This document shows positions 3,602 through 19,036 of a stretch of 48,435 nucleotides of DNA, in pieces (position 1 is the stretch's first letter; each line of letters opens with the position of its first letter). Position numbers and translations under genes: made by a program. Source of the DNA: an uncultured Ruminococcus sp. (GTDB taxonomy: Bacteria > Bacillota > Clostridia > Oscillospirales > Acutalibacteraceae); NCBI GenBank assembly GCA_964433515.1, contig CAYSRL010000001.1, positions 1 to 48,435 on the forward strand, in the 5' to 3' direction. The notes under the pieces are model-generated. The model did not search any database. It was not told the DNA's origin and saw only the letters and a program-made list of their open reading frames with translations.

Positions 3602-4966
3602 ATGCCTGTCGAAGTATGGTATCTTATAGCGATGTTCGCTGTAGTCACCATCGGATTCACCCTGCTCAAGCGACCCCTGTACGAGTGTATGCTGGCCGGC
3701 TTTATCGTGCTGGTCGTCATCACCGGAACCTGGTCCGACGTGGGCACCTTCATTTGGGAGGCGCTGAAAGAGCCTACCCTGTACGTCATTTTCGCCTTTA
3801 TCCTGTCGGCGGAACTATTGTCCAAGACCTCGGTCATTGACGATTGCATCGCCATCATCCTGTCCATCTTCGGACGGCTTCGTGGCGGTGCCGGTTTTGT
3901 GGCCGTCATCGGCAGTTCCTATATGGGCTCTCTGTCCGGCTCCGGCCCCGGTAACGTGGCCACCACCGGCGTGTTCACCATCCCGGCCATGATCCGCTCC
4001 GGCTTTCCCCGCCATCTGGCCGCCAACGTGGAGGCTCATTCCAGCACCATGGGCAATATGATCCCTCCCGCCGGTATGATCGGCGTGGCCTTTGCCCTGT
4101 TGGACAAGTTGTATCCCAACACCTATACGCTGCCCCAGTACTGGCTGTTGTTGTGGGGTATTGCTCTGTGGTTTATCGCCCAGCGCATTATCACCCTGTA
4201 TCTGATGTGCCGGTATTATAAGGTGGAGCCCATGAAAAAAGAAGAGGTGCCCAAGTTGGGCGAGTCTCTCAAGCGGGGCTGGAAGGCTGTGTTTCTCCCC
4301 ATCATCGTGTTTGTGCCTTTCCTGTTGACCAGCAAGTTTGATTATTTCTTCACCGCCCGGCTGAACGAGGCCGGTGCCAAAGCGCTCAACAACAGTCTGC
4401 TGTTGATCATCCCCGCCCTGATCGTGCTGTGCGGCATCCTGCTTTCGGATAAAAAATCCCGCAAGTTGATGACCCCCAAGTATATGTATCAGAGCATCAA
4501 CAAGGGTATGCTGAAGGTGGTTCCCACCGCCGCTCTGGTGCTGTTCGCCTATTTCGTGGCCAACGTGCTGGAGAGTCTGCACATCGAAGAGGCCATCGGC
4601 ACCTTTATCCAGGAGATGAATATGAGCCACGTGGCCCTGTGCTTCATCATCCCCTTTATCTGCGCCATCCTCGGTATGGTCCTTCCCGGTTCCAGCCAGG
4701 TTAAGATCTTCGGCGGTATCATCATCACCCTGCTGGCCGGTGCCGGCGGAAACCCCATGCTGGCGGCGGCTATGCTGCCCTGTATCTGCGGCGCTATGCA
4801 CGGCGTCACGCCCCCCTATTGCGCCTGCGTATATACCGGTATGGGTATCGCCCAGTCCGAGTTGAAGCCCACGCTGCTCAACTGTATATTCTGGATCATC
4901 CCCCACTATCTGCTGAGCGTTGTGATCCTGCTGGAATGGCTCCCCGTCTGGGGTCTGATTGGTTAA
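3602..4966 (+). CDS. TRAP-transporter large-permease (DctM)-like membrane protein
   Basis: 454 aa and polytopic. The segment GSGPGNVATTGVFTIPAMIRSGFP...AANVEAHSSTMGNMIPP resembles the DctM/TAXI-TRAP signature (..AAxVEAxASTGGQxMPP). Strong RBS. No DctP or DctQ partner is present in the window. Confidence 0.6.
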   Translation: MPVEVWYLIAMFAVVTIGFTLLKRPLYECMLAGFIVLVVITGTWSDVGTFIWEALKEPTLYVIFAFILSAELLSKTSVIDDCIAIILSIFGRLRGGAGFVAVIGSSYMGSLSGSGPGNVATTGVFTIPAMIRSGFPRHLAANVEAHSSTMGNMIPPAGMIGVAFALLDKLYPNTYTLPQYWLLLWGIALWFIAQRIITLYLMCRYYKVEPMKKEEVPKLGESLKRGWKAVFLPIIVFVPFLLTSKFDYFFTARLNEAGAKALNNSLLLIIPALIVLCGILLSDKKSRKLMTPKYMYQSINKGMLKVVPTAALVLFAYFVANVLESLHIEEAIGTFIQEMNMSHVALCFIIPFICAILGMVLPGSSQVKIFGGIIITLLAGAGGNPMLAAAMLPCICGAMHGVTPPYCACVYTGMGIAQSELKPTLLNCIFWIIPHYLLSVVILLEWLPVWGLIG

Positions 4967-4981
4967 GGAGGTTGAGCAAGT

Positions 4982-5272
4982 ATGCGTGAAAAGATTTTTA
5001 AGATCCTCAACAATATCTACGGCGTTCTGATGACCGCCTCCTTTTTCGGAGGTGTGCTGCCGCTTATCCCCTTTATCATCGCCATGATCGTAGGCGGTGA
5101 GGCCGGAGAGGCGATCGCCCTGTTCCTCTACAACGACTATTATCCCTGGGTGATCCTGGCCGGTTCCATCGCCGTTGTGTTTGGCCTCATCGCCATGTAC
5201 GTCGGTAAGTTGGAAGGTCTGAGCGTGAAAAAGGTCAGCGTCGACAATCCCGCTGAGAAACCCGAAGAATAA
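4982..5272 (+). CDS. Small two-TM membrane protein, unknown function, co-transcribed with the permease
   Basis: 96 aa with two hydrophobic helices. Strong RBS TAAGGAGG lies 9 nt upstream. Starts 15 nt after the permease stop codon. Confidence 0.65.
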   Translation: MREKIFKILNNIYGVLMTASFFGGVLPLIPFIIAMIVGGEAGEAIALFLYNDYYPWVILAGSIAVVFGLIAMYVGKLEGLSVKKVSVDNPAEKPEE

Positions 5273-5301
5273 AACAAAGAAACCCAATACCGCAACAGAA
5301 A

Positions 5302-5340
5302 AAGAGAAGGCTCGTTTATCACGAGTCTTCTCTTTCTTTT
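5302..5340. terminator. Rho-independent terminator between convergent operons
   Basis: Hairpin AAGAGAAGgCTCG-tttatca-CGAGtCTTCTCTT followed by TCTTTT. Confidence 0.6.
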
Positions 5341-5443
5341 GGTCTGTTAAGTGATGTTCCGCCTTTGTCGGAGTGATGTTTTTGTTGTGCAAAAGCGCTA
5401 TTGAACTCTTACGGTTTCAGTGATATTTTAGGAGTGTTTTTTA

Positions 5444-6895
5444 TCACTTTTGCTCGGCGATGATCCGCTTGCGGTCGATCTTGCCGTTGAAGGTGCGGGG
5501 GATCTCGTCAATGGCCTCAATGTATTTGGGCACCTTGTAGGCCTCCAATTTCTCGGCCAGATACTCCGACAGGGCGGCCGCATCCAGCCCATAGCCCTCG
5601 TTCAGTTTCACCAGCATCTTGACCACACGGCCGTATACCCGATCCTCATAGGGGATGCAGACACACTCGTCCACCATCGGGTGGCGCAGAGCCACATCCT
5701 CCACCTCGGTGGGGGCGATCTTCAGGCCGCCCACGTTGATAACGTCGTCACGGCGTCCCACCAAATACAGATAACCGTTCTCAATATACCCCAGGTCGGT
5801 CATATAGATCACGCCGTCCTGAATGGTGTTGGCGGTCAACTCCGGCTCATTCCAATAGCCGGCGGTAACGGTATTGCTGCGAATGGCGATGATGCCGGGG
5901 TTCTCCTTGGTGGCATTCTCCATCCGGTCGTAGTGCTCATCCACGATATAGATGTCCACGCCGGGATTGGCCTTGCCCACGCATTTGGTGTCGCCGGTCA
6001 CCGCATTATAGTCGATGTAACACACGGCGCCCACCTCAGAGCCGCCGTATGCATCAAATTTCCGCACATCGGGGAGCAGAGAGATCAGTTTTTCTTTATC
6101 GCCGCCGGGAAGTGCCGAAGAACTGGAATACAGGAAATCCAACTGGTCGTTGTATTTGGCCAGTTCCTTGGCGCCCAGCATCAGCACGTAATGGACGCCG
6201 GCCGGAGGCAAATAAATGGAGGTGACGTGGTGGTTTTTGATGTTGTCAAAAAACTGTCTTAGGTTGGTAAATCCAGTCATCAGCAACACCGTACTGCCCC
6301 GCACCATCGACATATGCGTCTTACGCAGGCCGGCAGCGTGATTCATCGGGGTGGGAATCAGCCACACGTTATCCTTGCTGTAATTCAGCACCGCATTCTG
6401 GGACTCGCACATATTCATCTGGCCGTAATGCGTGATCATCACGCCCTTGGATTTGCCGGTGGTGCCGGTGGTGAACAGGATCTCCTGCAACATATCTTCA
6501 GAGGGGAACTCCGGCACCGGGCCCTGATAGGCGGCCAGGTCGTCCAGGGTGACACCGAACGGCTCCAAAGGATGCTCGCCGGTGAGCAGCATACTGGGCG
6601 TAATCTCGGAGGCGATCGCAGACACCCGATCCGCCGGAGCGGCGTGCTCCACCGGAACGTGGACACCGCCCGCCAAGTGGATGCCGTAGCACATCACCAG
6701 AAACTCCACCGTGTGGTTGGCCTCCAGAATGACCCGTTCACCCTTTTGCAGCCCCTTATCCTTCAGCAACGCCGCCATACCCGCCACCATACTCCACAGG
6801 GCGGCGTAATCCACCGTGCGGTCGGGAGCGATCAGAGCGGTCTTGTCCGGCTGGGACAGGCTATGGTCATAAATACTCTTTACAATGGAACGCAT
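5444..6895 (-). CDS. AMP-dependent (adenylate-forming) ligase, DltA-like carrier-protein ligase
   Basis: 483 aa. AMP-binding core motif TTGTTGKSKGV. C-terminal NGKIDRK motif typical of ANL enzymes. AAGGAG RBS. Lies two genes from a DltC-like carrier protein. Confidence 0.85.
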   Translation of the reverse strand: MRSIVKSIYDHSLSQPDKTALIAPDRTVDYAALWSMVAGMAALLKDKGLQKGERVILEANHTVEFLVMCYGIHLAGGVHVPVEHAAPADRVSAIASEITPSMLLTGEHPLEPFGVTLDDLAAYQGPVPEFPSEDMLQEILFTTGTTGKSKGVMITHYGQMNMCESQNAVLNYSKDNVWLIPTPMNHAAGLRKTHMSMVRGSTVLLMTGFTNLRQFFDNIKNHHVTSIYLPPAGVHYVLMLGAKELAKYNDQLDFLYSSSSALPGGDKEKLISLLPDVRKFDAYGGSEVGAVCYIDYNAVTGDTKCVGKANPGVDIYIVDEHYDRMENATKENPGIIAIRSNTVTAGYWNEPELTANTIQDGVIYMTDLGYIENGYLYLVGRRDDVINVGGLKIAPTEVEDVALRHPMVDECVCIPYEDRVYGRVVKMLVKLNEGYGLDAAALSEYLAEKLEAYKVPKYIEAIDEIPRTFNGKIDRKRIIAEQK

Positions 6896-6932
6896 ACAGA
6901 CACTCCTTAGTTTTCAGCAGTTATCAGCGTGA

Positions 6933-7496
6933 TCACTTATCCCGGCGCTTATGAAAGCGCTCCCACACCAAAGCGGCGGTCTCGGGATCCATCTCCTGGT
7001 TTTTCACCTTGACGCACTGGCCACGGCTCATCTTCCGCAACGCCAGGAACATATCAAAGCGGCCGGTCACCTTGGCAGGGATGCCGGAGGCCACCGAATT
7101 CTCGGGAATGTCGGAGGTGACCACACTGCCGGCGGTCACGATGGAATCCTTGCCGATGCGGACATCCGGCATCACGGTCACGTTCATAGCGATATACACA
7201 TTGTCCTGCAGATCCACGCAACCCAACTTCTCGCCGTGGCCGAAATCGTCTTCGGGATTACGGATCTTGAGATAGCGGTTGAGCATATCGTGGGTAACGA
7301 TCTTTGCCGTCTTGTGTACGTGGACGTTGTCGCCCAGGCAGATCAGCTCCGGGTATAACGGCACCAGCCAAGGACCCCATTTGCAGTTATCGCCGATGGC
7401 GCCCAGAATGTGGTTCTTTTTCAGATAAGCGGCACGCTTTGCCGGTTTGCGGCACAGCAGCAACCGGATACTGTGATACATTCGTTTTGCTCTCAT
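6933..7496 (-). CDS. Left-handed beta-helix (hexapeptide-repeat) acyl/acetyltransferase
   Basis: 187 aa. Hexapeptide repeats include LGDNVHV, LQDNVYIAMNVTVMPDVRIGKDSIVTAGSVVTSDIPENSVASGIPAKV. Overall similar to maltose/capsule O-acetyltransferases. Confidence 0.8.
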   Translation of the reverse strand: MRAKRMYHSIRLLLCRKPAKRAAYLKKNHILGAIGDNCKWGPWLVPLYPELICLGDNVHVHKTAKIVTHDMLNRYLKIRNPEDDFGHGEKLGCVDLQDNVYIAMNVTVMPDVRIGKDSIVTAGSVVTSDIPENSVASGIPAKVTGRFDMFLALRKMSRGQCVKVKNQEMDPETAALVWERFHKRRDK

Positions 7497-7508
7497 ACTG
7501 CCACCTTA

Positions 7509-7739
7509 TCAGCCTTTCAGCCGCTCTACCATCGCCGTGATAGCCGCAACAGAATTGAAGTTTTCGGGGGCGATCTCATCCACACCGATCTCCACGTCAA
7601 AGCCCTCGGACAGCATCGAGATCAGGCTCATCAGTTCGAAAGAATCCAAATAGCCGCCTTCAATAATGTCCTCAACGCCGGACAGGTCACGGGTGGGCTT
7701 TACCTCGTTCAGAATGGCCAGTACTTTTTCCTGAGTCAT
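7509..7739 (-). CDS. Acyl/peptidyl carrier protein, DltC-like
   Basis: 76 aa. The phosphopantetheine attachment context GGYLDSFELMSL matches the D-alanyl carrier protein motif (ILDSFGTVELL). Confidence 0.8.
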   Translation of the reverse strand: MTQEKVLAILNEVKPTRDLSGVEDIIEGGYLDSFELMSLISMLSEGFDVEIGVDEIAPENFNSVAAITAMVERLKG

Positions 7740-7742
7740 AAC

Positions 7743-9233
7743 TTATTCCTCCGTTTTTTCTTTTGTTGTAGATGTTTGCTTTTTCTTAAACTTTTTGCGA
7801 ACCAATTTCATAATCAGCGCCCGATAGCGGTAGGCCACGATCAGCACCGCCACGCCCAAGGCGCCGATAACGCCCAGACGCACCCACAGGTGGTCATACA
7901 AATAATAACTGATGGCCATCACGCCGCAAAGCACCGCCAGAATGGCCACAAAGCCTTTGAAATTCAGGTATTTGCCAAGGCCGCTGCGGCACACCAGTAT
8001 GTAGTTGATGAAGAACAGCACCGCAAAAGCCGCAATGTTGATATACGGCAGGATCAGCACGCCGTTTCCGGGGTTTAGCGCATCGTACCAAGGGAGCAGG
8101 AAATACTTGGCCACCACGCACAACACCGCCACAATGCCCGTCCAGACGGCGGTGCTCGCCACCTTTTTCTGGTACGTGAGCATAATGGTGAAGATGGTGG
8201 TGGAGGACTGGATCAGCACCGCCACCACAAAGCCGGGCATCAACACCGTGGACTCCGGATACTTGCCGCTGCCCAGAATGTGCACCACCTCGGGAGCCAG
8301 CAGGATCACGCCCGCCGCCAACACCGAGATGCCCGCCATATAGGCCAGTGTGCCACGCCGGACCGCCTTGACATTCTCCTGATTCAGGTTGTCCATCAGC
8401 CAGGTGGTCACCGCTCCGGACACCGCCGTCAGCAACGTGGTCATAATGTGGTTGGCTGAGGCGGCGGTGGACACCACCGCATTGGCCTCTTCACCCAACC
8501 GCATCGTGGTGATGATGGAGTTGGAGGAACTCAGCAACTGGGCGGTCAGATAATGCAGCATCAAGGGGAAAGACAAGGCCAAGCCGTATTTGCAATATTT
8601 CCAGCCAAAGCCCTTTCCCCGGGCGATCAGCGCCAAAGCGCACCCCAAGCCGATCAAAGCGGAGGGAATATAGAAGCCGTAAATGCGGGCGCCCAACTTT
8701 TGCGTTTCGGGGGCCAGAATCACCAGCACCACCGCAATCACCGTGGGGATCAAGGCGTTAAGCGCCGAGATCACCGCCACCCCTTTGTACCGATAAAAGG
8801 TGCGCTCACGGGCCATAAAGATCTGCTTGCATCCCTGGAACAACAGCATAATAAACAAAACGTGGATATACTGCTTCGGGATGGAGGTGAAAGCGGAGAA
8901 CCAATCCCCGCAAAGCAACGCCACACCGTACAAGACCAGTGTCACGCCGCAACTTGCCAAGGTGACCGAGGATACGTATTTGTTGAAATCCTCTTTAAAA
9001 TCGTAATAGGCACGGGCCACCGTATTCTGCATCTCCAGACTGGTGATGATCAGCAACAGGGTCTCCCAACTGGCAAAGTTGGAGAAGGCGCCCAGATCTT
9101 CTTTGGACAATAACCCGGCAAAAATCGGGTGGGTGATAAAGGACAGACTCTTTACCAAAAACGTGCTGAGCACATACCAAAAGCCCGCTTTGATCGCCAG
9201 ACCGGCGCTGCCCCTTTTTACATTCTCTTGCAT
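7743..9233 (-). CDS. MOP-family polysaccharide flippase (Wzx-like)
   Basis: 496 aa with about 12-14 TM segments. Sits in a glycan locus directly downstream of the polymerase-like gene. Basic C-terminal tail. Confidence 0.75.
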   Translation of the reverse strand: MQENVKRGSAGLAIKAGFWYVLSTFLVKSLSFITHPIFAGLLSKEDLGAFSNFASWETLLLIITSLEMQNTVARAYYDFKEDFNKYVSSVTLASCGVTLVLYGVALLCGDWFSAFTSIPKQYIHVLFIMLLFQGCKQIFMARERTFYRYKGVAVISALNALIPTVIAVVLVILAPETQKLGARIYGFYIPSALIGLGCALALIARGKGFGWKYCKYGLALSFPLMLHYLTAQLLSSSNSIITTMRLGEEANAVVSTAASANHIMTTLLTAVSGAVTTWLMDNLNQENVKAVRRGTLAYMAGISVLAAGVILLAPEVVHILGSGKYPESTVLMPGFVVAVLIQSSTTIFTIMLTYQKKVASTAVWTGIVAVLCVVAKYFLLPWYDALNPGNGVLILPYINIAAFAVLFFINYILVCRSGLGKYLNFKGFVAILAVLCGVMAISYYLYDHLWVRLGVIGALGVAVLIVAYRYRALIMKLVRKKFKKKQTSTTKEKTEE

Positions 9234-9247
9234 AGGATGGCTTCTCC

Positions 9248-10519
9248 TTAATCTGAAACTAAATCTTTCGCCAGTATCTTGCGGTCGCCCAACAGTATCA
9301 ACATATAATACAGCATACCAATGGTGGAATGTGTGTGAGCGCTAAAGATTGAGGTGATCAGAACCACCGCCGCAACCAGTTTATACGGTAATTCGCCTTT
9401 GAACAAACCAACTATATACAATTCTACCGACAAAAGCATACCAATAAGGCCGTGGCGAAGAAGAGCACCGATCAAGCCGGGAACGTTGTAGGAAATGTTG
9501 TGGGTGGTGTCCTGAACACCAAATATCCATTGCGTAACGGTCAAATCCTTAAGGCTCTCAAGCGCCTTGGAAATTCGACCGGTGATCGCTGTTGTGCCCG
9601 TCTTAGTAACAAAAATCCGTGTTACGGTACGATTCACAGAAGGAATAAACAAAAACGCCAACACTGCCGCAACCAGCATAATACCAATCAACAGGAGATT
9701 GCGCCGGCAGAATACATTTCGCAAAGCAAAGGTGCCGCTCTTCTCATCGTATAATGCAAAAAACAAAACCCAGGCACCCACCACAACGGCCATTCCCATT
9801 CCGGAGGTGCAAAGGATCATCCCGAGGCTGATCAGAATGGACACCGTTAACCGTTTCTTCGTGGCTTTACCGCCAAACAAGGATAAAAGCAAATGAGGAA
9901 AAGCATAAATATACAGGTGGGAGGGCTCCAAAAAGAAAGCTGAGGGACGATAAAAATCGCTCAATCGTCCGGTGATGCCCGCCAAACCGGTTTGCGCTCC
10001 TAAAATCCACTGGTCCGCCATCGGCAGCAAAAGCGACGTAGGAACCAGTTGGATGTGATGCTCAAAGAGATAGAAACTGATGTACTGCACTATCAGACAA
10101 AGGGAAGCCGCAATGCTAACCATCGTTGCGGCCTTACACATCTTATCGATCTTGATACACCCTAGCGCTGCGGTCAGCAGATACAATGCCAAAACCCCGC
10201 TTTGGCCAAACTCCTCTACAGAAGTTCCGTGATCAACGACCCGATAGACAAAATAGCCTACCATAATCAAGACCGGGCTGATTCTTTTCAATATTGTTTT
10301 AATGTCCGTTCCTTTTACAGAAAAGTAAGCCCGCACAAGCAAATACGGCACCAGTACCACCAACAAAGTCAAAGCAGCATTGTACAATACGCTTCTGTAG
10401 TGTTGCAGAATAGGCACCAGTGCCAAAATGATGGCGCAAACATAATCCAACATTTCAGTTGTATCCTGTCTTGACCAATCGCTTGTTGCGTTGATACATT
10501 TACTCCGTAATGTTCCCAT
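9248..10519 (-). CDS. Polytopic membrane protein, Wzy/O-antigen-polymerase-like
   Basis: 423 aa with more than 10 TM helices. Visibly AT-richer than its neighbours, as is typical of wzy genes. GAGGAG RBS lies 7 nt upstream of the ATG at 10519. No catalytic motif was recognised. Confidence 0.5.
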   Translation of the reverse strand: MGTLRSKCINATSDWSRQDTTEMLDYVCAIILALVPILQHYRSVLYNAALTLLVVLVPYLLVRAYFSVKGTDIKTILKRISPVLIMVGYFVYRVVDHGTSVEEFGQSGVLALYLLTAALGCIKIDKMCKAATMVSIAASLCLIVQYISFYLFEHHIQLVPTSLLLPMADQWILGAQTGLAGITGRLSDFYRPSAFFLEPSHLYIYAFPHLLLSLFGGKATKKRLTVSILISLGMILCTSGMGMAVVVGAWVLFFALYDEKSGTFALRNVFCRRNLLLIGIMLVAAVLAFLFIPSVNRTVTRIFVTKTGTTAITGRISKALESLKDLTVTQWIFGVQDTTHNISYNVPGLIGALLRHGLIGMLLSVELYIVGLFKGELPYKLVAAVVLITSIFSAHTHSTIGMLYYMLILLGDRKILAKDLVSD

Positions 10520-10580
10520 TTTATACTCCTCATCTCAGAACGCTGTCAGAATAGTATGCTTTCCGGCGGAAACAACTCAA

Positions 10581-11627
10581 TTATGCCCGATAACGAGGGA
10601 AAAAGCCGCCCTCAGGCAAAGACTCACGCATAGAAACCAGTTCGTCGTATTTTTCTTGGTTAAATACTTTTTTTCCTATGTAAAAGCGGTGCAAAGCCTC
10701 ACCACGGTAAAAGGCTCGTTTGAACTTAAAAAGGCTGTCCTCACCGCTACCAACACCGCCGCCGAGGTACAGACTCTTGCACCCATTGGCGCAACCCCAC
10801 AGGGCTGCCTCATACAACAGCAGATTGCTGGGCGCCAAATGAGCGTATTCCCGCAACGAGCCGGAAAGGTGATAGTTCATTTTGCCGTTGCAGGCCAGCA
10901 TAATGGAAGCGGCAATGATCTTATCCTCCCACACAGCATAAAACACCTGGGCATTCTGAGGCAAATCATTCAGCACGCTCTCGTAAAACTCCGGAGAGAA
11001 ATAGTAATAAGCAGAGGCGTTATCCTTATCCATCGTGCCGTTGTAGATCTCTCGGAAGATCTTGTAAATCTCAGGATATCGGCCATTGTAGATGACAATG
11101 CCATTTTTCTGGGCCTTGCGGATCATATTGCGGTTTTTGCTGATGATATTGGCCCAAATCGTCTCAGGAGAGGTCAGGTCCATAGTCACCGTTTCGCCCA
11201 GAGGAATCACCTCATAATGATCGGTAACTTGCCGATGATTCTCCAGAACCGGGTGAAAACGAACAAACTCGCTGACGATACCGTTTTTACGGCACCAAGA
11301 CTCGTAAGCGGCCATCAGGCCGGATACATCCTCTCCCTCGATCAGCCAACCGCCATAGCCGTAAGGGCAAGCCAGATCAAAGACCCGGTTCTCCTCCAGA
11401 CGGCCCTGAAACAGGGCGCTGTGAGCCACATCCCGCTTCATAGACACCGAAATGCCACGGGTCTCCCCTTTTTCATAATGAAAAAGAAGCGGCTCGCCAT
11501 CGCCGTGAAGTTGAAAAGCCTTCACATAACCGCTCAGGTAATAGGTGTCGTATTCTTGGAATGTACGAACCACAGCATCCCACTGTTCCGCTTGTTCTAA
11601 CGTATATACGGTCAACAATACACTCAA
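10581..11627 (-). CDS. FemAB-family (Acetyltransf_6, GNAT-fold) aminoacyl/peptidyl transferase-like protein
   Basis: 348 aa. The C-terminal segment HLSGS...LLLYEAALWGCANGCKSLYLGGGVG..DSLFKFKRAF resembles the FemX/FemAB signature (..FK.GFGG). Confidence 0.65.
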   Translation of the reverse strand: MSVLLTVYTLEQAEQWDAVVRTFQEYDTYYLSGYVKAFQLHGDGEPLLFHYEKGETRGISVSMKRDVAHSALFQGRLEENRVFDLACPYGYGGWLIEGEDVSGLMAAYESWCRKNGIVSEFVRFHPVLENHRQVTDHYEVIPLGETVTMDLTSPETIWANIISKNRNMIRKAQKNGIVIYNGRYPEIYKIFREIYNGTMDKDNASAYYYFSPEFYESVLNDLPQNAQVFYAVWEDKIIAASIMLACNGKMNYHLSGSLREYAHLAPSNLLLYEAALWGCANGCKSLYLGGGVGSGEDSLFKFKRAFYRGEALHRFYIGKKVFNQEKYDELVSMRESLPEGGFFPRYRA

Positions 11628-12652
11628 CCTCTCCAGAACATTTTTAGTATCTGCGCCAACCGCTCCATATCCTCGGGGGAATACCGCTGGTCGCAGACCA
11701 AACTCAATTCAGACTGATAAATACGCTTCGTCTTTTCGTCCGGGCGGTGATAGTCGGTCAGCGGCCAATGCACCGGACAGTATATCTCATTCTGTATCAA
11801 GTGACGACGCAGAGCATCCCGTCGGTCCGCCGGCACCATCACCGGCACAAACAAAGGGCAATCCGCCGCCTGCATTTCCGGGAACAACGCCACCTCTGAA
11901 AAATGACGAAGTAACACCGCCGCATTCTCACGACGGCGGCGGCGCATCTCAGTTACATCCAGCACGACCGCTCTCGCCACATCCTCCGATTCGGCAACGG
12001 CCATAGGATTGCTCTCCAGTATCTCCTCAGCCTCGCCAAACAGGGACAGATATTCTTTGCTGTCGGTTTTTCCGGCGATATACTCCGCCTTTTGCTCCAT
12101 TGCCGTGCGGCGCAAAGATACATACTCTTTATAGGTGTCCTCCGGCTGTCCGGAGAAGCCCCAACCATAACCGCCGGTGTAGAACCCGGCCCATTTCCGC
12201 AAACTGCCAAAAGAATAGGCGTCCTCCCCGCTATGGGGGGCAAACAGGCCATGTGTCAGGTCGTGAATACACACCCCGTCAAAGGATGCCGTATTGGCAC
12301 CCGCCTCATAGCCGAAATAGTCCATCCGAAACAATATATCGCAACTCTCTGTACCGGAAAGTTCCTGTTTGAAGCGGCCGTTTTCGGTATACACCGGATA
12401 AAAGCACACCTCAATACCCGCCTCGGCAAAGGGGGAAATCATACTGTCGCAACACCAGGCAGGCATCGCCACCCGGCGCACCGGACGCTGTGCCTGTATC
12501 TCGGCGATAATGTGGGTCAGGGCGCTACGCCCAGAAAGAAACCAACGGGTTTCTGCCGGGAACACGCCGTTTTCGGCAGAGGCGATGGGAACATTCCAGA
12601 ACTCACTGCCGATTTCTAAGCGGTGACGCACAACCGCATTATCTTGCATCAT
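11624..12652 (-). CDS. PLP-dependent-transferase-fold protein (DegT/DnrJ/EryC1-like), function unclear
   Basis: About 342 aa. SGRSALTHIIAEI...MPAWCCDSMISPFAEAGIEVCFYPV resembles the DegT N-terminal region. A possible Schiff-base Lys is in SLRKWAG. The track ORF starts at a TTG at 12676. I prefer the ATG at 12652, preceded by GGGGAG. The ATGA overlaps the next gene. Confidence 0.45.
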   Translation of the reverse strand: MMQDNAVVRHRLEIGSEFWNVPIASAENGVFPAETRWFLSGRSALTHIIAEIQAQRPVRRVAMPAWCCDSMISPFAEAGIEVCFYPVYTENGRFKQELSGTESCDILFRMDYFGYEAGANTASFDGVCIHDLTHGLFAPHSGEDAYSFGSLRKWAGFYTGGYGWGFSGQPEDTYKEYVSLRRTAMEQKAEYIAGKTDSKEYLSLFGEAEEILESNPMAVAESEDVARAVVLDVTEMRRRRRENAAVLLRHFSEVALFPEMQAADCPLFVPVMVPADRRDALRRHLIQNEIYCPVHWPLTDYHRPDEKTKRIYQSELSLVCDQRYSPEDMERLAQILKMFWRG

Positions 12653-12685
12653 ATTCTCCCCTGCCTTGTCTGGCAAATACCGTCC

Positions 12686-13984
12686 TTACGAGTTGTGGAT
12701 CATCTCCAGGGCACGATCGTAGGTCAACTGCTCCACCTGCATATCCTGGCCGTTCTCGTCCAGGATCCGCAGAGTGCGGCTGATCTTCTCCAGGGTGGTG
12801 GCCAACGCCTCCGGGGTGTCGTCCATCACGTGCAGACGATAAATCACACGATCCAGAGAGTTGGTGGTGCTGATAACATCCCCCACCTTTTTAAAGGTGG
12901 CATTCTGCAACACTTGAGGCATCGCCTCCACCTCTTCGATGCCGGAGATGGCGGTGATGGTGCCACCCTTAAGCGTGATATAGTAATTGCAGCAGGTCTT
13001 GGTGAAATGAGGGTCGTCCTGCTCCTTAGCATTGCCGCAGGTCATCTTTCCGGTGACCGAGAACTCGATCATCATATCCAGGGCGTTGATGCCGTTGATG
13101 GGATCGGCAAATACATAAAACTGCTCGCCGCCCATACGCAGACCAGACTCGTAGAAATAGAACTGATCCTCGTGAATGAAGCCCTGCATCATCACGATGC
13201 CGTTCTTCAGACCCAAACTCTCAAACATACGAACCACAGCCGGTTCGGCAGTAGCCTTGTAAAGGTCGATGTAAGAGGAGGGGAATACGTGCAAAATGGC
13301 GGAAGAAGCCACCTTGTTCTCGCCGATGGCCTTCTGTTTCATAAAGGTGGAGGACAGGCTGCAATAGCCATCCTGCACCGTGTAATGGATGTAGATCTCG
13401 TTGGGACAGTCAATGTACTTCTCCACCAAAATCTTCTTGCTCTTGGAATGCTCGTACAGCTCGGCATAATAGGAGACCAACTCCTCCTCGCTGTCGCACC
13501 GGCGGATTCCACGGCTGCCACTCTCGTCAGCCGGCTTCACCAACACGGGGTAGGTGATCTTATCCAGATCTTCCCGCTTGAAATCCGTATCCAACTTATA
13601 CTCAGGGATGGTGGGAACACCATACTGCACACAGGCCTGCTTAAAGCGGCGCTTATCGTTGGAGAGGATGTCAAACTGCTCCATCGTGCCGCAAGAAGGC
13701 AGACCGGCCTTTTCGCAAATCTCAGCATAGTAAGGCAAGTGAGAATCGGTCCAGCCCACAAAAATACCGTCAATCTGGTGCTCCTTGATCAGGGCTACCA
13801 TATTGTCCACATCGGAAAAGTCCACCTTCCACTGTTGGTCGGCAATCCGCTTGGCCGGAGCCTTATCCTCTTCGTAGAAGTTGGCGACAATGGTGGTGAC
13901 GCCCAACTCTTTGGCTCGCTTTACCGCACTGGCCGCCAAAGAAGAGCCATCAAAAAACAGCAATTTTTTCCCTTGAATGTTCAT
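12686..13984 (-). CDS. ATP-grasp ligase
   Basis: 432 aa. A pre-ATP-grasp Rossmann-like N-terminus (KKLLFFDGSSLAASAVKRAKELGV) is followed by a central ATP-grasp segment (YPVLVKPADESGSRGI..., LVEKYI). Confidence 0.8.
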   Translation of the reverse strand: MNIQGKKLLFFDGSSLAASAVKRAKELGVTTIVANFYEEDKAPAKRIADQQWKVDFSDVDNMVALIKEHQIDGIFVGWTDSHLPYYAEICEKAGLPSCGTMEQFDILSNDKRRFKQACVQYGVPTIPEYKLDTDFKREDLDKITYPVLVKPADESGSRGIRRCDSEEELVSYYAELYEHSKSKKILVEKYIDCPNEIYIHYTVQDGYCSLSSTFMKQKAIGENKVASSAILHVFPSSYIDLYKATAEPAVVRMFESLGLKNGIVMMQGFIHEDQFYFYESGLRMGGEQFYVFADPINGINALDMMIEFSVTGKMTCGNAKEQDDPHFTKTCCNYYITLKGGTITAISGIEEVEAMPQVLQNATFKKVGDVISTTNSLDRVIYRLHVMDDTPEALATTLEKISRTLRILDENGQDMQVEQLTYDRALEMIHNS

Positions 13985-14011
13985 AGTTTTTTCCTCTCTT
14001 ATCGTTTTTCT

Positions 14012-14734
14012 TTACTTTGCCGAAAAAGGGGAGGATAGCGACTTGGTGTCGTCCCCCTCAGTCTTAGGAAGGCGATCTGCCCGCTCAATATGCAGGCTAA
14101 CCGGGCGTTGCTCACCTTGGCCGATGCCGTCCCGCTTGACCACCTTGATAACGGTTTCAAACAGGATGCGGATATCCAGCCAAAAGGACATATTGTTGAC
14201 GTACTCTACGTCATAGGCAAACTTCTGCTCCCAACTCAGGTTGTTCCGTCCACGAGCCTGAGCCAAACCAGTCAGACCCGGCAACACATCGTGACGGTGC
14301 CGTTCCTCCTCGGTGTAATAAGGGATGTACTTCATACCCAGAGGTCGGGGACCCACCAGACTCATATCTCCCTTGAGAATGTTAAACAACTCCGGCAACT
14401 CATCCAGCGAAGAGGCTCGCAACAACTTGCCAAACTTGGTCAAGCGGCGGCTGTCCGGCAACAGATTGCCGTTTTCGTCCTTTTCGTTGGTCATAGAACG
14501 GAATTTGTACAATTTGAAGATTCTTTCCTTTCCGGTCTTGGGATCGATCTTGCCAGGCCGGGTGGCAGTATAGATCACCGGGCTTCCCAGTTTGAGGCGT
14601 ACCAACAATGCCACAACGGCAAACACTATCGCCAAAACGATCAAACCGGACAAAGAACAGACAATATCCAACAGCCGCTTAACATAGCGGGCATACAAAC
14701 CATTCTTACCCTTTTTCATACGCAACTTCCTCAC
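14012..14734 (-). CDS. Monotopic initiating phosphoglycosyltransferase (bacterial sugar transferase, PglC/EpsL/WbaP-C type)
   Basis: 240 aa. Re-entrant helix, then KFRSM...DELPQL-like motif (SSLDELPELFNILKGDMSLVGPRP) diagnostic of the Bac_transf family. Confidence 0.9.
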   Translation of the reverse strand: MRKLRMKKGKNGLYARYVKRLLDIVCSLSGLIVLAIVFAVVALLVRLKLGSPVIYTATRPGKIDPKTGKERIFKLYKFRSMTNEKDENGNLLPDSRRLTKFGKLLRASSLDELPELFNILKGDMSLVGPRPLGMKYIPYYTEEERHRHDVLPGLTGLAQARGRNNLSWEQKFAYDVEYVNNMSFWLDIRILFETVIKVVKRDGIGQGEQRPVSLHIERADRLPKTEGDDTKSLSSPFSAK

Positions 14735-15945
14735 TCAAAACACGCCCGGATGGCGGCGATCACCACGTCCTGATCCTCGGGGGACATCTTAATGTCGCTG
14801 GGCAGGCACAAGCCACGATGGAAAATGTCGGCGCTCACATTGTCGATGGCGTCCTTTTTTTGGCTCTTATACAGTCCCTCTGCGGTGACGAACGCATTGC
14901 CCTTGTAAATGGGCTGCATATGCATCGGCTTCCAGATGGGACGGCCCTCGGCGTTGATGGCCGCCAGTTTCTCCAGGATCTCGGTGGGACAACTCTTGCC
15001 CGGTTCATCGGAATAAGCCGCCACACACGCCTTTCGTCTTTGGAAGCACATCGCCTCTTGGTCAATCAGCATACAGGTCAGCCAGAAGTTGGGCTCCATC
15101 TCCCCCTCCACGTAGGGGTTGAGGGTGATGGGCAGACCCTTCAGGCCCTCTTTGTACCGTTCGTAGATGGCCTTTTTCCGGGCCACGTGATCCTCCAGAT
15201 AAGGCAACTGACCCCGAACCACGCCGGCGATCACATTGCTCATACGGTAGTTATATCCCCGCTCCTCATGCTGATACCAAGGAGCATCCTCACGGCTCTG
15301 GGTGGACCACTTGCGCACCTTGGCGGCCGCCTCGGCGCTGTCGGTCAGCAACATACCGCCGGAGGAACCGGTGATGATCTTGTTGCCGTTAAAAGAGATC
15401 ACGTTATAGTCACCCACCGAGCCGGTCTGGCGCCCCTTATAGGTGGCGCCCAAACTCTCGGCGGCGTCCTCGATCAGCACCGCACCGTGAGCATCGCAGA
15501 TGGCACGGATCTCGTCCAGTTTGGCAGGGGTGCCGTACAGATGCACCGCCACCACCGTCTTGACCTCCGGGTACAGTTCAAAGGCCTTTTCCAGCGCCGC
15601 CGGGTCCATATTCCAGGTCTCCCGCTCGCAGTCGATGAACACCGGCTCGCCGCCCTCGTAGGCCACCGGGTTGACGGTGGCGGCAAAGGTCATATCGGTG
15701 CAGAACACCTTATCGCCGGGGCGGACACCCGCCAACTTGACCGCCATATGGAGAGCCGCCGTGCCGGCAGACAGCCCCACGGCATAGCGACAGCCCACCT
15801 TTTCGCAGACCAGGCGCTCTGACTCGTTGATGTTCTCGCCGATGGTGGACATCCAGTTGGAGTCATACGCCTCTTGGATATACTTCATCTCATCCCCGTG
15901 CATCGTGGGGGTGGATAACCATACTCTGCTCTTAAATGCTTCCAT
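14731..15945 (-). CDS. DegT/DnrJ/EryC1/StrS-family sugar aminotransferase (PglE/EpsN-like)
   Basis: 404 aa. Contains HGDEMKYIQEAYDSNW, SAGTAALHMA, and the active-site lysine context SFNGNKIIT. The ATGA overlaps the sugar transferase gene. Confidence 0.9.
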   Translation of the reverse strand: MEAFKSRVWLSTPTMHGDEMKYIQEAYDSNWMSTIGENINESERLVCEKVGCRYAVGLSAGTAALHMAVKLAGVRPGDKVFCTDMTFAATVNPVAYEGGEPVFIDCERETWNMDPAALEKAFELYPEVKTVVAVHLYGTPAKLDEIRAICDAHGAVLIEDAAESLGATYKGRQTGSVGDYNVISFNGNKIITGSSGGMLLTDSAEAAAKVRKWSTQSREDAPWYQHEERGYNYRMSNVIAGVVRGQLPYLEDHVARKKAIYERYKEGLKGLPITLNPYVEGEMEPNFWLTCMLIDQEAMCFQRRKACVAAYSDEPGKSCPTEILEKLAAINAEGRPIWKPMHMQPIYKGNAFVTAEGLYKSQKKDAIDNVSADIFHRGLCLPSDIKMSPEDQDVVIAAIRACFE

Positions 15946-16187: not shown

Positions 16188-17543
16188 TTATTCTAAGATA
16201 GCCGAAAAGGGCTGCTGTACATCCAGGTCACGGATGCGGCCGATAAGCGCCGCCACCCGCCGGTCGTCCGCCATACCGGCGGCACACTGACGGAGTTTGA
16301 TCTCCATATCCCTCCAGGAAAGGCGCTGTTCCCCCTCGCCCTTGGGGGTGAGCACCGTCTCGGTATAGGTTCTGCCGCCGGCGGTGATGGTCACCACCGC
16401 ACCACGGATCCCCTTTGCCCGGTTTTCCAGTTCCGGGTCGGGGATCACCCGAATCTTCGGCACCAGAAACGCCGTCTTTTCACAGGTGCTCACATCCAGC
16501 TGGGACAGCCCGAATTCTCCCTTTTCCAGCGCCGCCGCCAGGCAATAATGCAACGAAAACTTCGCCTCGTCCACCGTGGTGGGATACGGGGTGTGACCGG
16601 TGGATCTGATGGCGCTGGGATACACGGTGACCGCAATATCCTCTACCCCATCCAGATCCACGCCATCCGCCTCCATCCGGTGACGGATGGCGATGGCCGC
16701 ATCGATGCCGCAATGGGTGTGACGGCAAGAAGGATACAGTTTTAAATAACTCTCGTTGATGGTGAAGGTCTCCCCCAGCCCATCAAACAACACCGCCTCG
16801 TCCACCTCGTCAGAAAAGGCGTTAAACCAGCCTTTTTTGCTCTCTAAGGGGTTGCGGGAACTCTCCACGCCCATCGCCGCCAACTGGGCGGATTCCAGGC
16901 CGATGCGGGCACCGTTGGCGGGGTTTATGGGCTTACAACCCTGGCCGCTCTCGTCAATAATGATCAAGCCGGAGGCCTGTATGGCCGCCAGGGAAATGGC
17001 GTTGTAAATGCCATCGGCATCCAGACCCAACAGTTTGGCGCAGGCCGCCGCACAGGCGATCCCGCCGCCCACGCCGGTGGAGTGAAACCCCTTGTTGTAC
17101 AAACTGGGTTGGGCGGCGCCCGCCACCCGGTTAAACACGTCGTAGCCCACCACGATGGCGGTAAACACCTCACGCCAGGTCACCGGCAACGTTTCTGCCA
17201 AAGCGAACACCGCCGGCATCACGTGGGTGCCGATGTGCCCGGCGGATCTGCGGTTGCCGTCGTCCATATCCGCACCGTGGGCATAAAGGGCGTTGAGAAA
17301 CGCCGCATTGGTCTCGGGGAATTTTTGGCCGGAGAACAGCACCGTTGCCCGGGGGGTGCCCCCCATATCCGCCATTCTGGCAAACACCTTTTCATTCAGC
17401 GCCGTATTGATGCGGTAGCCGGCAAAACAAGCGGCGTAATAATCCGCCATAAACAATTTGATCTGTTCCACCGTAGCCGGGTCCAGATCCTCAAACCGCA
17501 ACCCGGCCGCAAACCGGCTGAGGCGGGTGGTTATATCCTGCAT
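16188..17543 (-). CDS. MmgE/PrpD-family protein, paralog 2
   Basis: 451 aa from MQDITTRLSRFAAGLRFEDL, the typical PrpD-family N-terminus. AAGGAG lies 7 nt upstream. The 45 extra codons in the track ORF overlap the upstream gene and are Arg/Cys-rich. Confidence 0.85.
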   Translation of the reverse strand: MQDITTRLSRFAAGLRFEDLDPATVEQIKLFMADYYAACFAGYRINTALNEKVFARMADMGGTPRATVLFSGQKFPETNAAFLNALYAHGADMDDGNRRSAGHIGTHVMPAVFALAETLPVTWREVFTAIVVGYDVFNRVAGAAQPSLYNKGFHSTGVGGGIACAAACAKLLGLDADGIYNAISLAAIQASGLIIIDESGQGCKPINPANGARIGLESAQLAAMGVESSRNPLESKKGWFNAFSDEVDEAVLFDGLGETFTINESYLKLYPSCRHTHCGIDAAIAIRHRMEADGVDLDGVEDIAVTVYPSAIRSTGHTPYPTTVDEAKFSLHYCLAAALEKGEFGLSQLDVSTCEKTAFLVPKIRVIPDPELENRAKGIRGAVVTITAGGRTYTETVLTPKGEGEQRLSWRDMEIKLRQCAAGMADDRRVAALIGRIRDLDVQQPFSAILE

Positions 17544-17559
17544 AGCGATCTCCTTGTTG

Positions 17560-18906
17560 TTACAGCAGCCGGCACAGTTCGTCCAGCCGGGTCTCGACCT
17601 GCAGAACAGCCTCCACAATGGCCGCCGCCTGCGCCTCGGTCTTGCCGCCGTACACAGCCAGCGCCGTGAACTTATCAATAGCCTCTTGGCGGGTCAACGG
17701 ATTTTCCGGCTCACCCTTGGGCAGGATGCTCTTGCCGCTGATGACCCGGCCGTCCTTAAGCACCATCTCCACGGTGGCGATGGTCTCTTGGGGGAAAGCG
17801 GCGGTCATCCCGGCGTCCTCGGTGGTGACGATCTTCTTGGTGATGGCCTGCACCTCCGGATCGTTCAAGGAATCCTCGGTGAAGGCCTCCATACCGGTGC
17901 GGCCCAGCACATAGGTCACCGCAAAGTTATAGGGAATGCTCATTTTGGCAGAGGCAGAACCCTTGATGTCGGTGTGGTCGTGCTTTTTCACCGCCAGAGC
18001 ATAGGTCTTGATGTGAATGCTCTCGATCCGGTCGGAGGGCAACGCCCCCTGCGCCCGCAGCTCCCGAGCCACGTCAATAGAAGGATGGGTATACCGGCAG
18101 GCGGCATACGGCTTGATATAGGCCTTTTGCACCGCATAAGTGCCATTCAGAAGGGGGGACACAAACTCCACATCCTCGGTGCCGTACATCTGGCACAGGA
18201 AACCCGCCATACCCGCCAGGGCGTCGTCCGCCGTGTCGAAACCGGCGGCCGCCATCTGGGTGGAGATCAACCCCAACAAGGCGGTCTTTCCCACGTTATA
18301 AGGCTTTAACTGAGAACCGTCCTCCAGCACCTTAAGGGTGCCGGTGGCGGAGGCCGCCGCCGTCGAGAAGGCGTCCTTACGCTGTTTTTCGGTATAGCCC
18401 AGCAACTCGGAAACCGCCACGGCGATGCCCAGCAGACCACAGGTGGCGGTGGCGTGATAACCCCGCTGTTTGTGGGTGGGCTGGATGGTCATCGCCATCG
18501 TGAAAGAGGTCTCGTAACCCAGCACCGCCGCCTTCAGCAGTTGCTGGCCGGTGACCGGATATTTCTGCGCCAGCGCCAACAGCACCGAGAACAAGGGCGA
18601 GCCCAAATGGATGATGCCGGCATTGGTGCCGTCGTCAAAATCCAGAGCGTGACCGTTAAGGCCGTTGAGGAACACCGCATTGTTCATACTCATCGGTATA
18701 TCCAGACCCACCGGACGAATATCCCCCTCCCGGTCGCTGAAACTCTCCACCAGGCTGTTTACCTTATCCCGGTATTCCTGCAGACCCGCCAGGGTGACGC
18801 CGATATAATCCAGCAAAGCCAGTTTGGTCCGCTCCAGAACCTCCGCCGGGATCTCCTTGGCCCTTACTTCATCTATGCGTTGCAAAAATAAATCGGTTTT
18901 GTTCAT
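17560..18906 (-). CDS. MmgE/PrpD-family protein, paralog 1
   Basis: 448 aa from MNKTDLFLQRIDEVRAKEIP. The family segment LLDYIGVTLAG...HALDFDD is present. GGTGAGG RBS precedes the ATG at 18906. The track start at 18918 is a GTG. Confidence 0.85.
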   Translation of the reverse strand: MNKTDLFLQRIDEVRAKEIPAEVLERTKLALLDYIGVTLAGLQEYRDKVNSLVESFSDREGDIRPVGLDIPMSMNNAVFLNGLNGHALDFDDGTNAGIIHLGSPLFSVLLALAQKYPVTGQQLLKAAVLGYETSFTMAMTIQPTHKQRGYHATATCGLLGIAVAVSELLGYTEKQRKDAFSTAAASATGTLKVLEDGSQLKPYNVGKTALLGLISTQMAAAGFDTADDALAGMAGFLCQMYGTEDVEFVSPLLNGTYAVQKAYIKPYAACRYTHPSIDVARELRAQGALPSDRIESIHIKTYALAVKKHDHTDIKGSASAKMSIPYNFAVTYVLGRTGMEAFTEDSLNDPEVQAITKKIVTTEDAGMTAAFPQETIATVEMVLKDGRVISGKSILPKGEPENPLTRQEAIDKFTALAVYGGKTEAQAAAIVEAVLQVETRLDELCRLL

Positions 18907-19036
18907 AAGGAACCTCACCTTTCATAATCATTTATCTATATTTTAAAATCATACCACAGCGATCTCCCCTTGGCAAGTGTTTTTTGCTAGGTTACAGCAC
19001 TATGATCGGCGCTTTTCCGGCTACACATATTACCAG

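Follow-up and report, generated by a model that had tools for sequence, protein, structure and literature searches.

What does a DltC-like carrier protein do beside an adenylate-forming ligase when neither DltB nor DltD accompanies them and a soluble acyltransferase gene lies between the two? This question is raised by three genes in a stretch of 48,435 nucleotides (hereafter the window) from an uncultured Ruminococcus sp. (GenBank assembly GCA_964433515.1, contig CAYSRL010000001.1), which encode a carrier, a left-handed beta-helix (LbH) acyltransferase and a ligase of the ANL superfamily, here called the trio. Our analysis indicates that the trio is one real functional unit and that it is probably a carrier-protein-dependent module which acylates a surface-glycan precursor in the cytoplasm with an acid other than an amino acid. 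An earlier, sequence-only reading of the window had proposed cytoplasmic acylation by a dedicated carrier, ligase and soluble LbH enzyme within a glycan operon, and this part of its interpretation stood; Dlt-like aminoacylation, for which it had left room, did not, as the aspartate of the A4 region is absent from the ligase.

Conservation of the trio and a natural fusion

The three open reading frames (ORFs) and the motifs described in the sequence-only reading were all recovered from the ORF list and by Pfam (Table 1), and the gene of the 187-aa LbH protein does lie between those of the carrier and the ligase, an order which recurs in related loci. The ORFs are spaced by 12 nt (carrier to LbH) and 37 nt (LbH to ligase), each is preceded by a Shine-Dalgarno-like sequence, and together they are the last three of ten co-directional genes in the ORF list, running from 15945 to 5444 with gaps of -4 to 61 nt. 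The operon begins with genes for a LegC/DegT-type aminotransferase, a small phosphoglycosyl transferase (PGT), an ATP-grasp ligase and a 350-aa DegT-like protein, and continues through a FemAB-like protein, a 423-aa Wzy_C-like membrane protein and a Wzx flippase to the carrier, LbH and ligase.

The trio is regarded as a functional unit because its gene order is constant, because its three proteins also occur as a three-domain fusion, and because a carrier and a ligase stand beside distant relatives of the LbH protein. The order carrier-LbH-ligase was kept in all related loci with enough flank, well beyond what chance would give, at identities of 69-93% for the ligase, 54-92% for the LbH protein and 46-90% for the carrier, while other genes of the operon were more divergent, the ATP-grasp ligase most of all (24-31%) and the Wzy-like protein at 30-62%; the aminotransferase was 62-89% identical across the trio loci. 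The pair of FemAB-like and 350-aa DegT-like genes is absent from two loci (L015 and L016) in which the trio is unchanged, and the only further conserved enzymes there are the aminotransferase, the PGT and an ATP-grasp protein. Hosts of the related loci are metagenome-assembled genomes of Acutalibacteraceae, Oscillospiraceae and other Eubacteriales. In a metagenome search, 350 protein clusters matched the LbH protein at E <= 0.001; those listed (120) are 181-197 aa long and at least 66% identical to it. Orthologues of the trio are rare when sampled at the level of isolates: 3 of 24 genomes from the same genus have them, as does a single one of 400 sampled across the order.

An exhaustive search of representatives revealed the fusion, P0123, a metagenomic protein of 804 aa (locus L032) in which LbH, carrier and ANL domains follow one another. 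Its LbH domain (residues 1-184) is 57% identical to the LbH protein of the trio, its carrier domain (about 212-285) has the motifs FDSLSL and ENFNS and matches the trio carrier at E 5e-11, and its ANL domain (316-804) is 38% identical to the trio ligase. At L032 (3332-9884) the genes after the fusion encode a carrier and an LbH protein that are not fused, a DASS-family anion symporter and another ANL protein; an aconitase gene lies upstream of the fusion on the opposite strand. In L030, L031, L022 and L032, distant LbH relatives (39-57% identity) have a carrier and an ANL ligase encoded no more than three genes away. The ligases of L030, L031 and L022 come from other ANL families, a malonyl transacylase (MCAT) is added in L031 and L022, and L031 also has beta-ketoacyl-acyl carrier protein synthase III (KAS III) and ketoreductases (KR). 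Since the LbH family and the carrier both persist while the family of the ligase differs or enzymes resembling fatty acid synthase (FAS) are added, these two are the constant pair of the module.

The carrier protein

The carrier matched the Pfam PP-binding family (PF00550) at 21.6 bits (cut-off 20.8) and is acidic, with an isoelectric point (pI) of 4.05. A modifiable serine, which had been named beforehand as a test of the carrier, is present as Ser33 (codon 7641-7643), the phosphopantetheine attachment residue within GGYLDSFELM; it is contained in GGYLDSFELMSL, is invariant across 16 aligned carriers, and is followed by a second conserved carrier motif, PENFNS. A single ACPS-type phosphopantetheinyl transferase is encoded in the assembly (contig C9, 60.7 bits), and a canonical housekeeping acyl carrier protein (ACP) is encoded separately on contig C92. 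With a PP-binding fold, a conserved serine and a phosphopantetheinyl transferase in the genome, the protein has the attributes predicted for a phosphopantetheine carrier. The sequence-only reading had called it DltC-like on the strength of the motif YLDSFELMSL, and both observations were borne out, the top NCBIfam match being DltC (NF003464). This match scored 35 bits against a cut-off of 68, and a second DltC model (TIGR01688) scored 22.5 bits against 52.35; with both models under their cut-offs, identity as a DltC equivalog was rejected.

The adenylate-forming ligase

The ligase exceeded the Pfam cut-offs for AMP-binding (PF00501, 191.6 bits) and AMP-binding_C (PF13193, 54.4 bits). The core motif TTGTTGKSKGV, which had been picked out in the 483-aa enzyme from its translation, is present as the P-loop at residues 142-152; the A8 motif is GRRDDVINVGGLKIAP (380-395), and the catalytic lysine of A10 lies within NGKIDRK (470-476). 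All three elements are conserved among the orthologues, as is characteristic of the ANL superfamily, and with them intact the enzyme should be able to adenylate its substrate.

Its kinship was less Dlt-like than had been supposed. The best NCBIfam models were acyl-CoA ligases, led by PRK06187 at 253.5 bits and all under their own cut-offs, whereas the DltA model (NF003417) scored 153.8 bits against a cut-off of 476 and ranked 24th among the NCBIfam matches, behind many acyl-CoA ligase models; a generic amino-acid adenylation model scored 176 against 317. In amino-acid activators of the non-ribosomal peptide synthetase (NRPS) type, an aspartate in A4 binds the alpha-amino group of the substrate. 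The A4 region of the trio ligase, NHAAG (185-189), has no aspartate: His186-Ala187 aligned on the Phe-Asp of A4 in both adenylation domains of LgrA, NHAAGLRK is invariant in 11 ligase orthologues, and the aspartate position is alanine or serine in all orthologues and in the MBOAT-linked paralogues described below. The pocket was read from alignments at the equivalents of Asp235 and Lys517 only. Because His186-Ala187 replaces Phe-Asp, an aminoacyl substrate is unlikely, and the sequence points most probably to a carboxylic acid that has no alpha-amino group. The label 'DltA-like' in the sequence-only reading is therefore withdrawn, given the higher acyl-CoA ligase scores and the replacement of the A4 aspartate by alanine. 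That reading had also asked whether the ligase clusters with enzymes unrelated to carrier loading; its profile scores do lie nearer to the acyl-CoA ligases, yet it is still tied to a carrier by fusion and by synteny. A special kinship with the glycine-activating LgrA was considered and rejected, as the top PDB match (E 2e-61) was the sum of two adenylation domains and the best single LgrA domain (123.6 bits) was no better than FadD5 (137 bits).

The LbH acyltransferase

The LbH protein matched Pfam Hexapep at 38.7 bits (cut-off 27), and its AlphaFold2 model is a compact soluble LbH with a predicted local distance difference test (pLDDT) score of 94.2, consisting of two N-terminal basic helices, the LbH core, a loop after His69-Asp70 and a C-terminal helical tail. 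P46, H69 (codon 7290-7292), G138 and A141 are invariant in the family, as is the pair His69-Asp70, which in a profile alignment lies one column off His115 of LacA, a residue that we take to be the catalytic base of that enzyme. The top Foldseek matches of the model were the O-acetyltransferases LacA and Maa (E about 1e-8, template modelling score 0.5-0.6), and a profile search against the PDB gave the same galactoside and maltose O-acetyltransferases (Maa, E 7.5e-23; LacA, E 1.9e-21), with the sugar N-acyltransferases QdtC, Pcryo_0619, AntD and PerB slightly behind them. By its fold and the catalytic-type histidine in its loop region, the protein fits a hexapeptide acyltransferase of the LacA/Maa type.

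Other assignments were examined. Identity with the PglD/NeuD/PglB type was rejected, as TIGR03570 scored 49.7 bits against a cut-off of 160.8 and covered the C-terminal turns only; no PglD_N domain was detected by Pfam, and PglD-type genes are present separately beside the LbH relatives in L030, L031 and L022. LpxD models matched weakly (E about 2e-6). A membrane anchor formed by the N-terminal basic helices is not favoured; these helices show a weak alignment to the helical N-terminal part of Maa and LacA. Nothing in the trio proteins looks exported or membrane-embedded, and for this reason acylation in the cytoplasm is the most reasonable assumption.

The LbH protein is basic (pI 9.57, with a net charge of +10 in its first 30 residues), so that its charge is complementary to that of the acidic carrier. 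Complex prediction for three copies of the LbH protein with the carrier gave a median score of 0.48 (runs 0.48, 0.57 and 0.41), against 0.00 for the best of three controls, with agreement between runs in at least 90% of contacts and a partner pLDDT of at least 84. As custom alignments and chain copies were used, the calibration of the method applies roughly to this prediction. In it, the mark was reached by 58 of 80 solved complexes and by 2 of 110 mismatched pairs; where the score was no higher than 0.60, those reaching the mark were 7 of the 80 solved complexes and both of the passing mismatches.

Absence of a Dlt system and MBOAT-linked paralogues

No match to MBOAT (PF03062) or DltD (PF04914) was found anywhere in the source assembly (1.50 Mb, 255 contigs, 90.57% complete), which extends to the whole assembly the absence of DltB and DltD that had been remarked upon for the window, and the genes of the related loci, as tabulated by Pfam, include neither family. 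With no MBOAT or DltD in the assembly and with the DltA and DltC models under their cut-offs, a true Dlt system was rejected.

A genome of the same genus (G004) was informative, as it carries the orthologous trio together with two paralogous ligase genes (46% and 36% identical). Each paralogue stands in an operon (L036 and L037; Table 1) that also encodes a DltB-like MBOAT, a small carrier of the PP-binding family and a protein of about 365 aa without assignment, and in L037 a CitMHS/DASS transporter gene is placed between those of the 365-aa protein and the ligase. The carrier paralogue is 37% identical to the carrier of the trio. Each MBOAT had DltB as its sole NCBIfam match, with 161 bits for one and 134 for the other (cut-off 375), and both ligases are without the amine-binding A4 aspartate. 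The two operons may be extracytoplasmic organic-acid acylation systems. If the proposal made here is true, these siblings suggest that its chemistry operates outside the membrane as well. Carrier loading is the likely job of the ligase family because paralogous ligase/carrier pairs adjoin DltB-like MBOATs, and the clade recurs in association with carriers and with the acylation of envelope polymers, with either an MBOAT or a soluble LbH protein as the partner. The sequence-only reading had looked to relatives for an adjacent MBOAT; one was indeed found next to the paralogous pairs of G004, and none next to the orthologous trio.

Proposed mechanism and acceptor

We propose that the single ACPS-type phosphopantetheinyl transferase would convert the carrier to its holo form at Ser33, after which the ligase would adenylate a small carboxylic acid without an alpha-amino group and thioesterify it to the carrier. 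The acid would probably be polar (hydroxy-, di- or tricarboxylic), and its source would be either the medium or central metabolism. The basic and presumably trimeric LbH protein would then dock the acidic acyl-carrier, with His69 as the putative general base for acyl transfer. The acceptor would be a sugar produced by the co-conserved aminotransferase and the small PGT, probably a UDP- or undecaprenyl-PP-linked derivative of a 2-acetamido-4-amino-2,4,6-trideoxyhexose, and transfer would take place on the cytoplasmic side before the Wzx flippase flips the product. We infer the loading of the carrier by the ligase, the use of the acyl-carrier by the LbH protein, the acceptor and the nature of the acid from the evidence presented here.

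The upstream genes of the operon likely supply and export the acceptor sugar, and a PglF-like 4,6-dehydratase is encoded on another contig of the assembly (C73). Two lines of evidence bear on the position that is acylated: the LacA/Maa likeness of the LbH protein favours a hydroxyl acceptor, and the co-conservation of the trio with the aminotransferase favours a 4-amino acceptor. In Bacillus cereus, the Pat and Pyl genes of the UDP-yelosamine pathway lie beside a small PGT, and the ATP-grasp enzyme Pyl acylates the 4-amine with 2-oxoglutarate (PMC11257628, citing Hwang et al. 2014). The case illustrates how a UDP-4-amino sugar can receive a polar organic acid. The aminotransferase, ATP-grasp protein and small PGT of the upstream half of our operon resemble this set as described there; the B. 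cereus set differs in that, in that account, it needs no carrier, ANL ligase or LbH protein, and the comparison bears on the ATP-grasp neighbour and not on the trio (PMC11257628). By analogy with that case, an ATP-grasp ligase acting on the 4-amine would leave another position for the LbH enzyme.

Evidence against the proposal and alternative explanations

Several observations weigh against the proposed module. The acceptor of the LbH enzyme is ambiguous, because the ATP-grasp ligase of the operon could itself acylate the 4-amine in the manner reported for B. cereus Pyl (PMC11257628). Among solved structures, those nearest to the LbH enzyme (LacA, Maa, VCA0836 and Pcryo_0619) all belong to users of acetyl-CoA and not of an acyl-carrier; the modelled complex of LbH trimer and carrier passed weakly and so lends weak support; and the ligase could make an acyl-CoA instead of loading the carrier. 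No carrier or ligase was seen beside the distant LbH relatives in L035 and L033, two short contigs, and public annotation of the three proteins is generic ('acyl carrier protein', 'acyl--CoA ligase', 'acyltransferase'). Gene context and the fusion nevertheless argue for an acyl-carrier rather than acetyl-CoA as the probable donor of the LbH enzyme.

The reliance of its solved relatives on acetyl-CoA also underlies an unlikely alternative, namely that the LbH protein is an ordinary acetyl-CoA-dependent sugar O- or N-acetyltransferase, with the carrier and ligase feeding another enzyme of the operon or a lipid pathway; the lack of a carrier in view beside some distant family members agrees with this. 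Independence of the three proteins is, however, spoken against by the LbH-carrier-ANL fusion, the trio remains intact in the loci that lack the FemAB-like and DegT-like genes, and the LbH protein and carrier are constant even where the ligase family changes. The fusion fits equally well with a different role, in which the LbH enzyme tailors the carrier-tethered acid, for example by acetylating its hydroxyl or amino group, and another enzyme transfers it to the sugar. Such on-carrier tailoring is common in pathways of the NRPS and polyketide synthase type, yet no other candidate for an off-loading acyltransferase is conserved with the trio, and neither ATP-grasp nor FemAB-type enzymes are known to draw on thioester donors; we give this possibility little chance. 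Equally slight is the probability of aminoacylation of the Dlt or Alm type, by which D-alanine or glycine would be loaded on the DltC-like carrier and the LbH protein would replace DltB/DltD or AlmG to yield a cationic decoration. DltC is the best family match of the carrier, DltB-like MBOATs adjoin the paralogous pairs, and AlmEFG provides a precedent for a Dlt-like pair that feeds an acyltransferase on the cytoplasmic face (PMC4278540). Against these points, the amine-binding aspartate is Ala187 in the trio ligase and alanine or serine in every orthologue and MBOAT-linked paralogue, and the DltA and amino-acid adenylation models score far below their cut-offs.

The nature of the acid

No acid-forming enzyme of the dehydrogenase or reductase type was detected in the operon by Pfam or NCBIfam, and the hints to the identity of the acid come from the neighbourhood and from the ligase. 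Genes for organic-anion transporters recur at these modules, though in differing arrangements. Convergent to the operon are genes for a DctM-like permease (454 aa) and a 96-aa partner, without DctP (3602-5272, plus strand); the best model of the permease was a fused permease of the tripartite ATP-independent periplasmic (TRAP) type, under its cut-off. Orthologues of this DctM-type permease (45-90% identical) lie beside the trio in L008, L015, L016, L018 and L020, in both orientations, and a full DctQMP set occupies the same place as the DctM-like gene at L030. A DASS/CitMHS gene lies between LbH and ligase genes in L032, as another does inside the MBOAT-type operon of L037. In the ligase and its relatives, a conserved arginine and a lysine or arginine follow the A4 region that lacks aspartate (GLRK, GLRR, AMRR), and oxalate-, malonate- and o-succinylbenzoate-CoA ligases are among its better PDB sequence matches. 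From the neighbourhood alone, a polar di- or tricarboxylic acid or a hydroxy acid is a reasonable guess.

A wider reading, which we offer tentatively on these hints and hold to be rather doubtful, is that the whole clade, whether partnered by an LbH protein or by an MBOAT, installs an imported polar di-/tricarboxylic or hydroxy acid on surface glycans as an 'organic-acid Dlt'; in the operon of the window, the 4-amino sugar would receive the acid from the LbH enzyme, after which the ATP-grasp ligase, which varies between strains, would add an amino acid to the carboxylate of the acid that is still free. If true, such a system would give an anionic or neutral decoration, and not a cationic one.

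Directly upstream of the glycan operon are two tandem genes of the MmgE/PrpD family (16188-18918, minus strand), and relatives of these were also seen near the trio in L008, L011 and L021, accompanied in L011 by an aldo-keto reductase, a thiamine pyrophosphate (TPP) enzyme, a C-C bond lyase and class I fumarase-like subunits. This neighbourhood may represent an organic-acid pathway linked to glycan decoration. Genes of the MmgE/PrpD family, or in L032 the aconitase gene, are often found next to the modules and count among the hints to the wider reading above.

Comparison with known systems

Acyl and aminoacyl decorations set the charge and antigenicity of bacterial surface glycans and their recognition by phages and hosts. 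To our knowledge, carrier-fed decoration of glycans beyond LpxA/LpxD, Dlt and AlmEFG consists mostly of gene-cluster predictions, and no trio of carrier, ANL ligase and LbH protein in polysaccharide loci was found described in the literature, in which only analogues were found. LpxA and LpxD are LbH trimers which take acyl-ACP and acylate hydroxyl or amino groups of UDP-amino-sugars; they differ from our system in using the housekeeping ACP and fatty acyl chains made by FAS, whereas the trio has a dedicated carrier with its own ligase and an LbH protein that is distantly related to them. The trio shares with DltABCD a DltC-like carrier beside an ANL ligase, and paralogous pairs in the same genus adjoin DltB-like MBOATs, but its assembly lacks MBOAT and DltD, its ligase fails the DltA model and the A4 aspartate is absent. 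With a soluble LbH protein as the transfer enzyme, acylation is expected inside the cell, unlike in DltABCD.

AlmG of Vibrio cholerae is counted among the lipid A secondary acyltransferases and not among the LbH proteins. In the AlmE/AlmF/AlmG system a stand-alone ligase loads a small phosphopantetheinylated carrier with glycine and the acyltransferase decorates lipid A, so that the likeness lies in the three-part logic only, again without DltB or DltD (PMC4278540). AlmE activates glycine and the acceptor is lipid A, whereas the trio ligase lacks the amine-binding aspartate and the transferase is an LbH protein. Among the O-polysaccharide genes of Flavobacterium psychrophilum (wfpD and wfpG, with wfpC/E/F), WfpD is a dedicated ACP from which 3,5-dihydroxyhexanoyl is predicted to pass, via the PglD-homologous LbH protein WfpG, to UDP-Qui2NAc4NH2; the acylated sugar is chemically proven, and the transfer step itself is predicted only (PMC6519341). 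The dedicated carrier, the LbH protein and the class of 4-amino sugar are as expected for our system, but the acyl chain is built there on the ACP by FAS-like enzymes, without an ANL ligase and with a PglD-type LbH protein (PMC6519341). In the trio, by contrast, a single ANL ligase would load a ready-made acid and the LbH protein is LacA/Maa-like. Clusters in the style of F. psychrophilum, with KAS III, KR and MCAT, do stand beside LbH relatives in L031 and L022. These two loci (L031, 994-14483, LbH 39%; L022, 4081-16563, LbH 54%) are bacillosamine-type clusters with a carrier and an ANL ligase, which also hold a GNAT protein, a metallo-beta-lactamase-fold protein and a separate PglD-type LbH protein, and their layout resembles the wfpC-G logic.

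The sequence-only reading had pointed to a loose resemblance to the tetronate set of V. cholerae O1, which presumably comprises an ACP (WbeK) and an acetyltransferase of the hexapeptide family (WbeO) and, we assume, acid-making genes of the dehydrogenase or reductase type. The trio operon differs in having no dehydrogenase or reductase gene. The V. cholerae genes VC0248-VC0252 (wbeK-O, also rfbK-O) have been assigned to the synthesis of tetronate and the N-acylation of perosamine, and WbeL is a 471-aa protein with an ATP-binding domain (PMC3441752). The likeness is that of genes in an O-antigen locus which place a polar hydroxy acid on a 4-amino-4,6-dideoxy sugar, roles that are homology-based there, and the two sets were compared by description only (PMC3441752).

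The logic of the trio is thus already known, and what differs is the combination of a LacA/Maa-like LbH protein with its own carrier, a single loader of the ANL superfamily that lacks the aspartate, a tri-domain fusion and MBOAT-linked siblings in the same genus. The module is compact and highly conserved, and comes from uncultured Oscillospirales of the gut and rumen; the three-domain fusion makes the coupling of donor, carrier and transferase directly testable in vitro. If the proposal is true, a LacA/Maa-like LbH protein would join the short list of acyl-carrier-dependent sugar acyltransferases, and a previously unseen acyl group would be expected on a bacillosamine-type sugar.

Organization of the operon

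Features of the window and the paralogous operons of the same-genus genome are given in Table 1.

Table 1. Coordinates of the trio, its flanking features and the MBOAT-linked paralogous operons
Feature	Position	Strand	Context or basis
Carrier (P0001), 76 aa	7509-7739	minus	Pfam PP-binding
LbH acyltransferase (P0002), 187 aa	6933-7496	minus	Pfam Hexapep
ANL-superfamily adenylate-forming ligase (P0003), 483 aa	5444-6895	minus	Pfam AMP-binding + AMP-binding_C
Upstream operon genes	7743-15945	minus	Pfam, NCBIfam; atlas leads for two unnamed proteins
Hairpin with 15-bp stem	5301-5335		Between ligase gene and convergent DctM-like/96-aa gene pair; terminator scan and sequence reading
G004 paralogous operon L036	G004:C76:58000-72000, 5386-9964
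G004 paralogous operon L037	G004:C56:14000-30000, 6223-12139

No glycosyltransferase family was detected in the operon by Pfam or NCBIfam, despite the initiating PGT, the Wzx flippase and the Wzy_C-like protein. The small PGT gene is followed directly by that of the ATP-grasp ligase (12686-14734, minus strand), downstream of the DegT-type aminotransferase gene. A promoter-like site lies upstream of the operon at 16092-16063, and at its other end the hairpin is a probable bidirectional terminator that would close the glycan operon.

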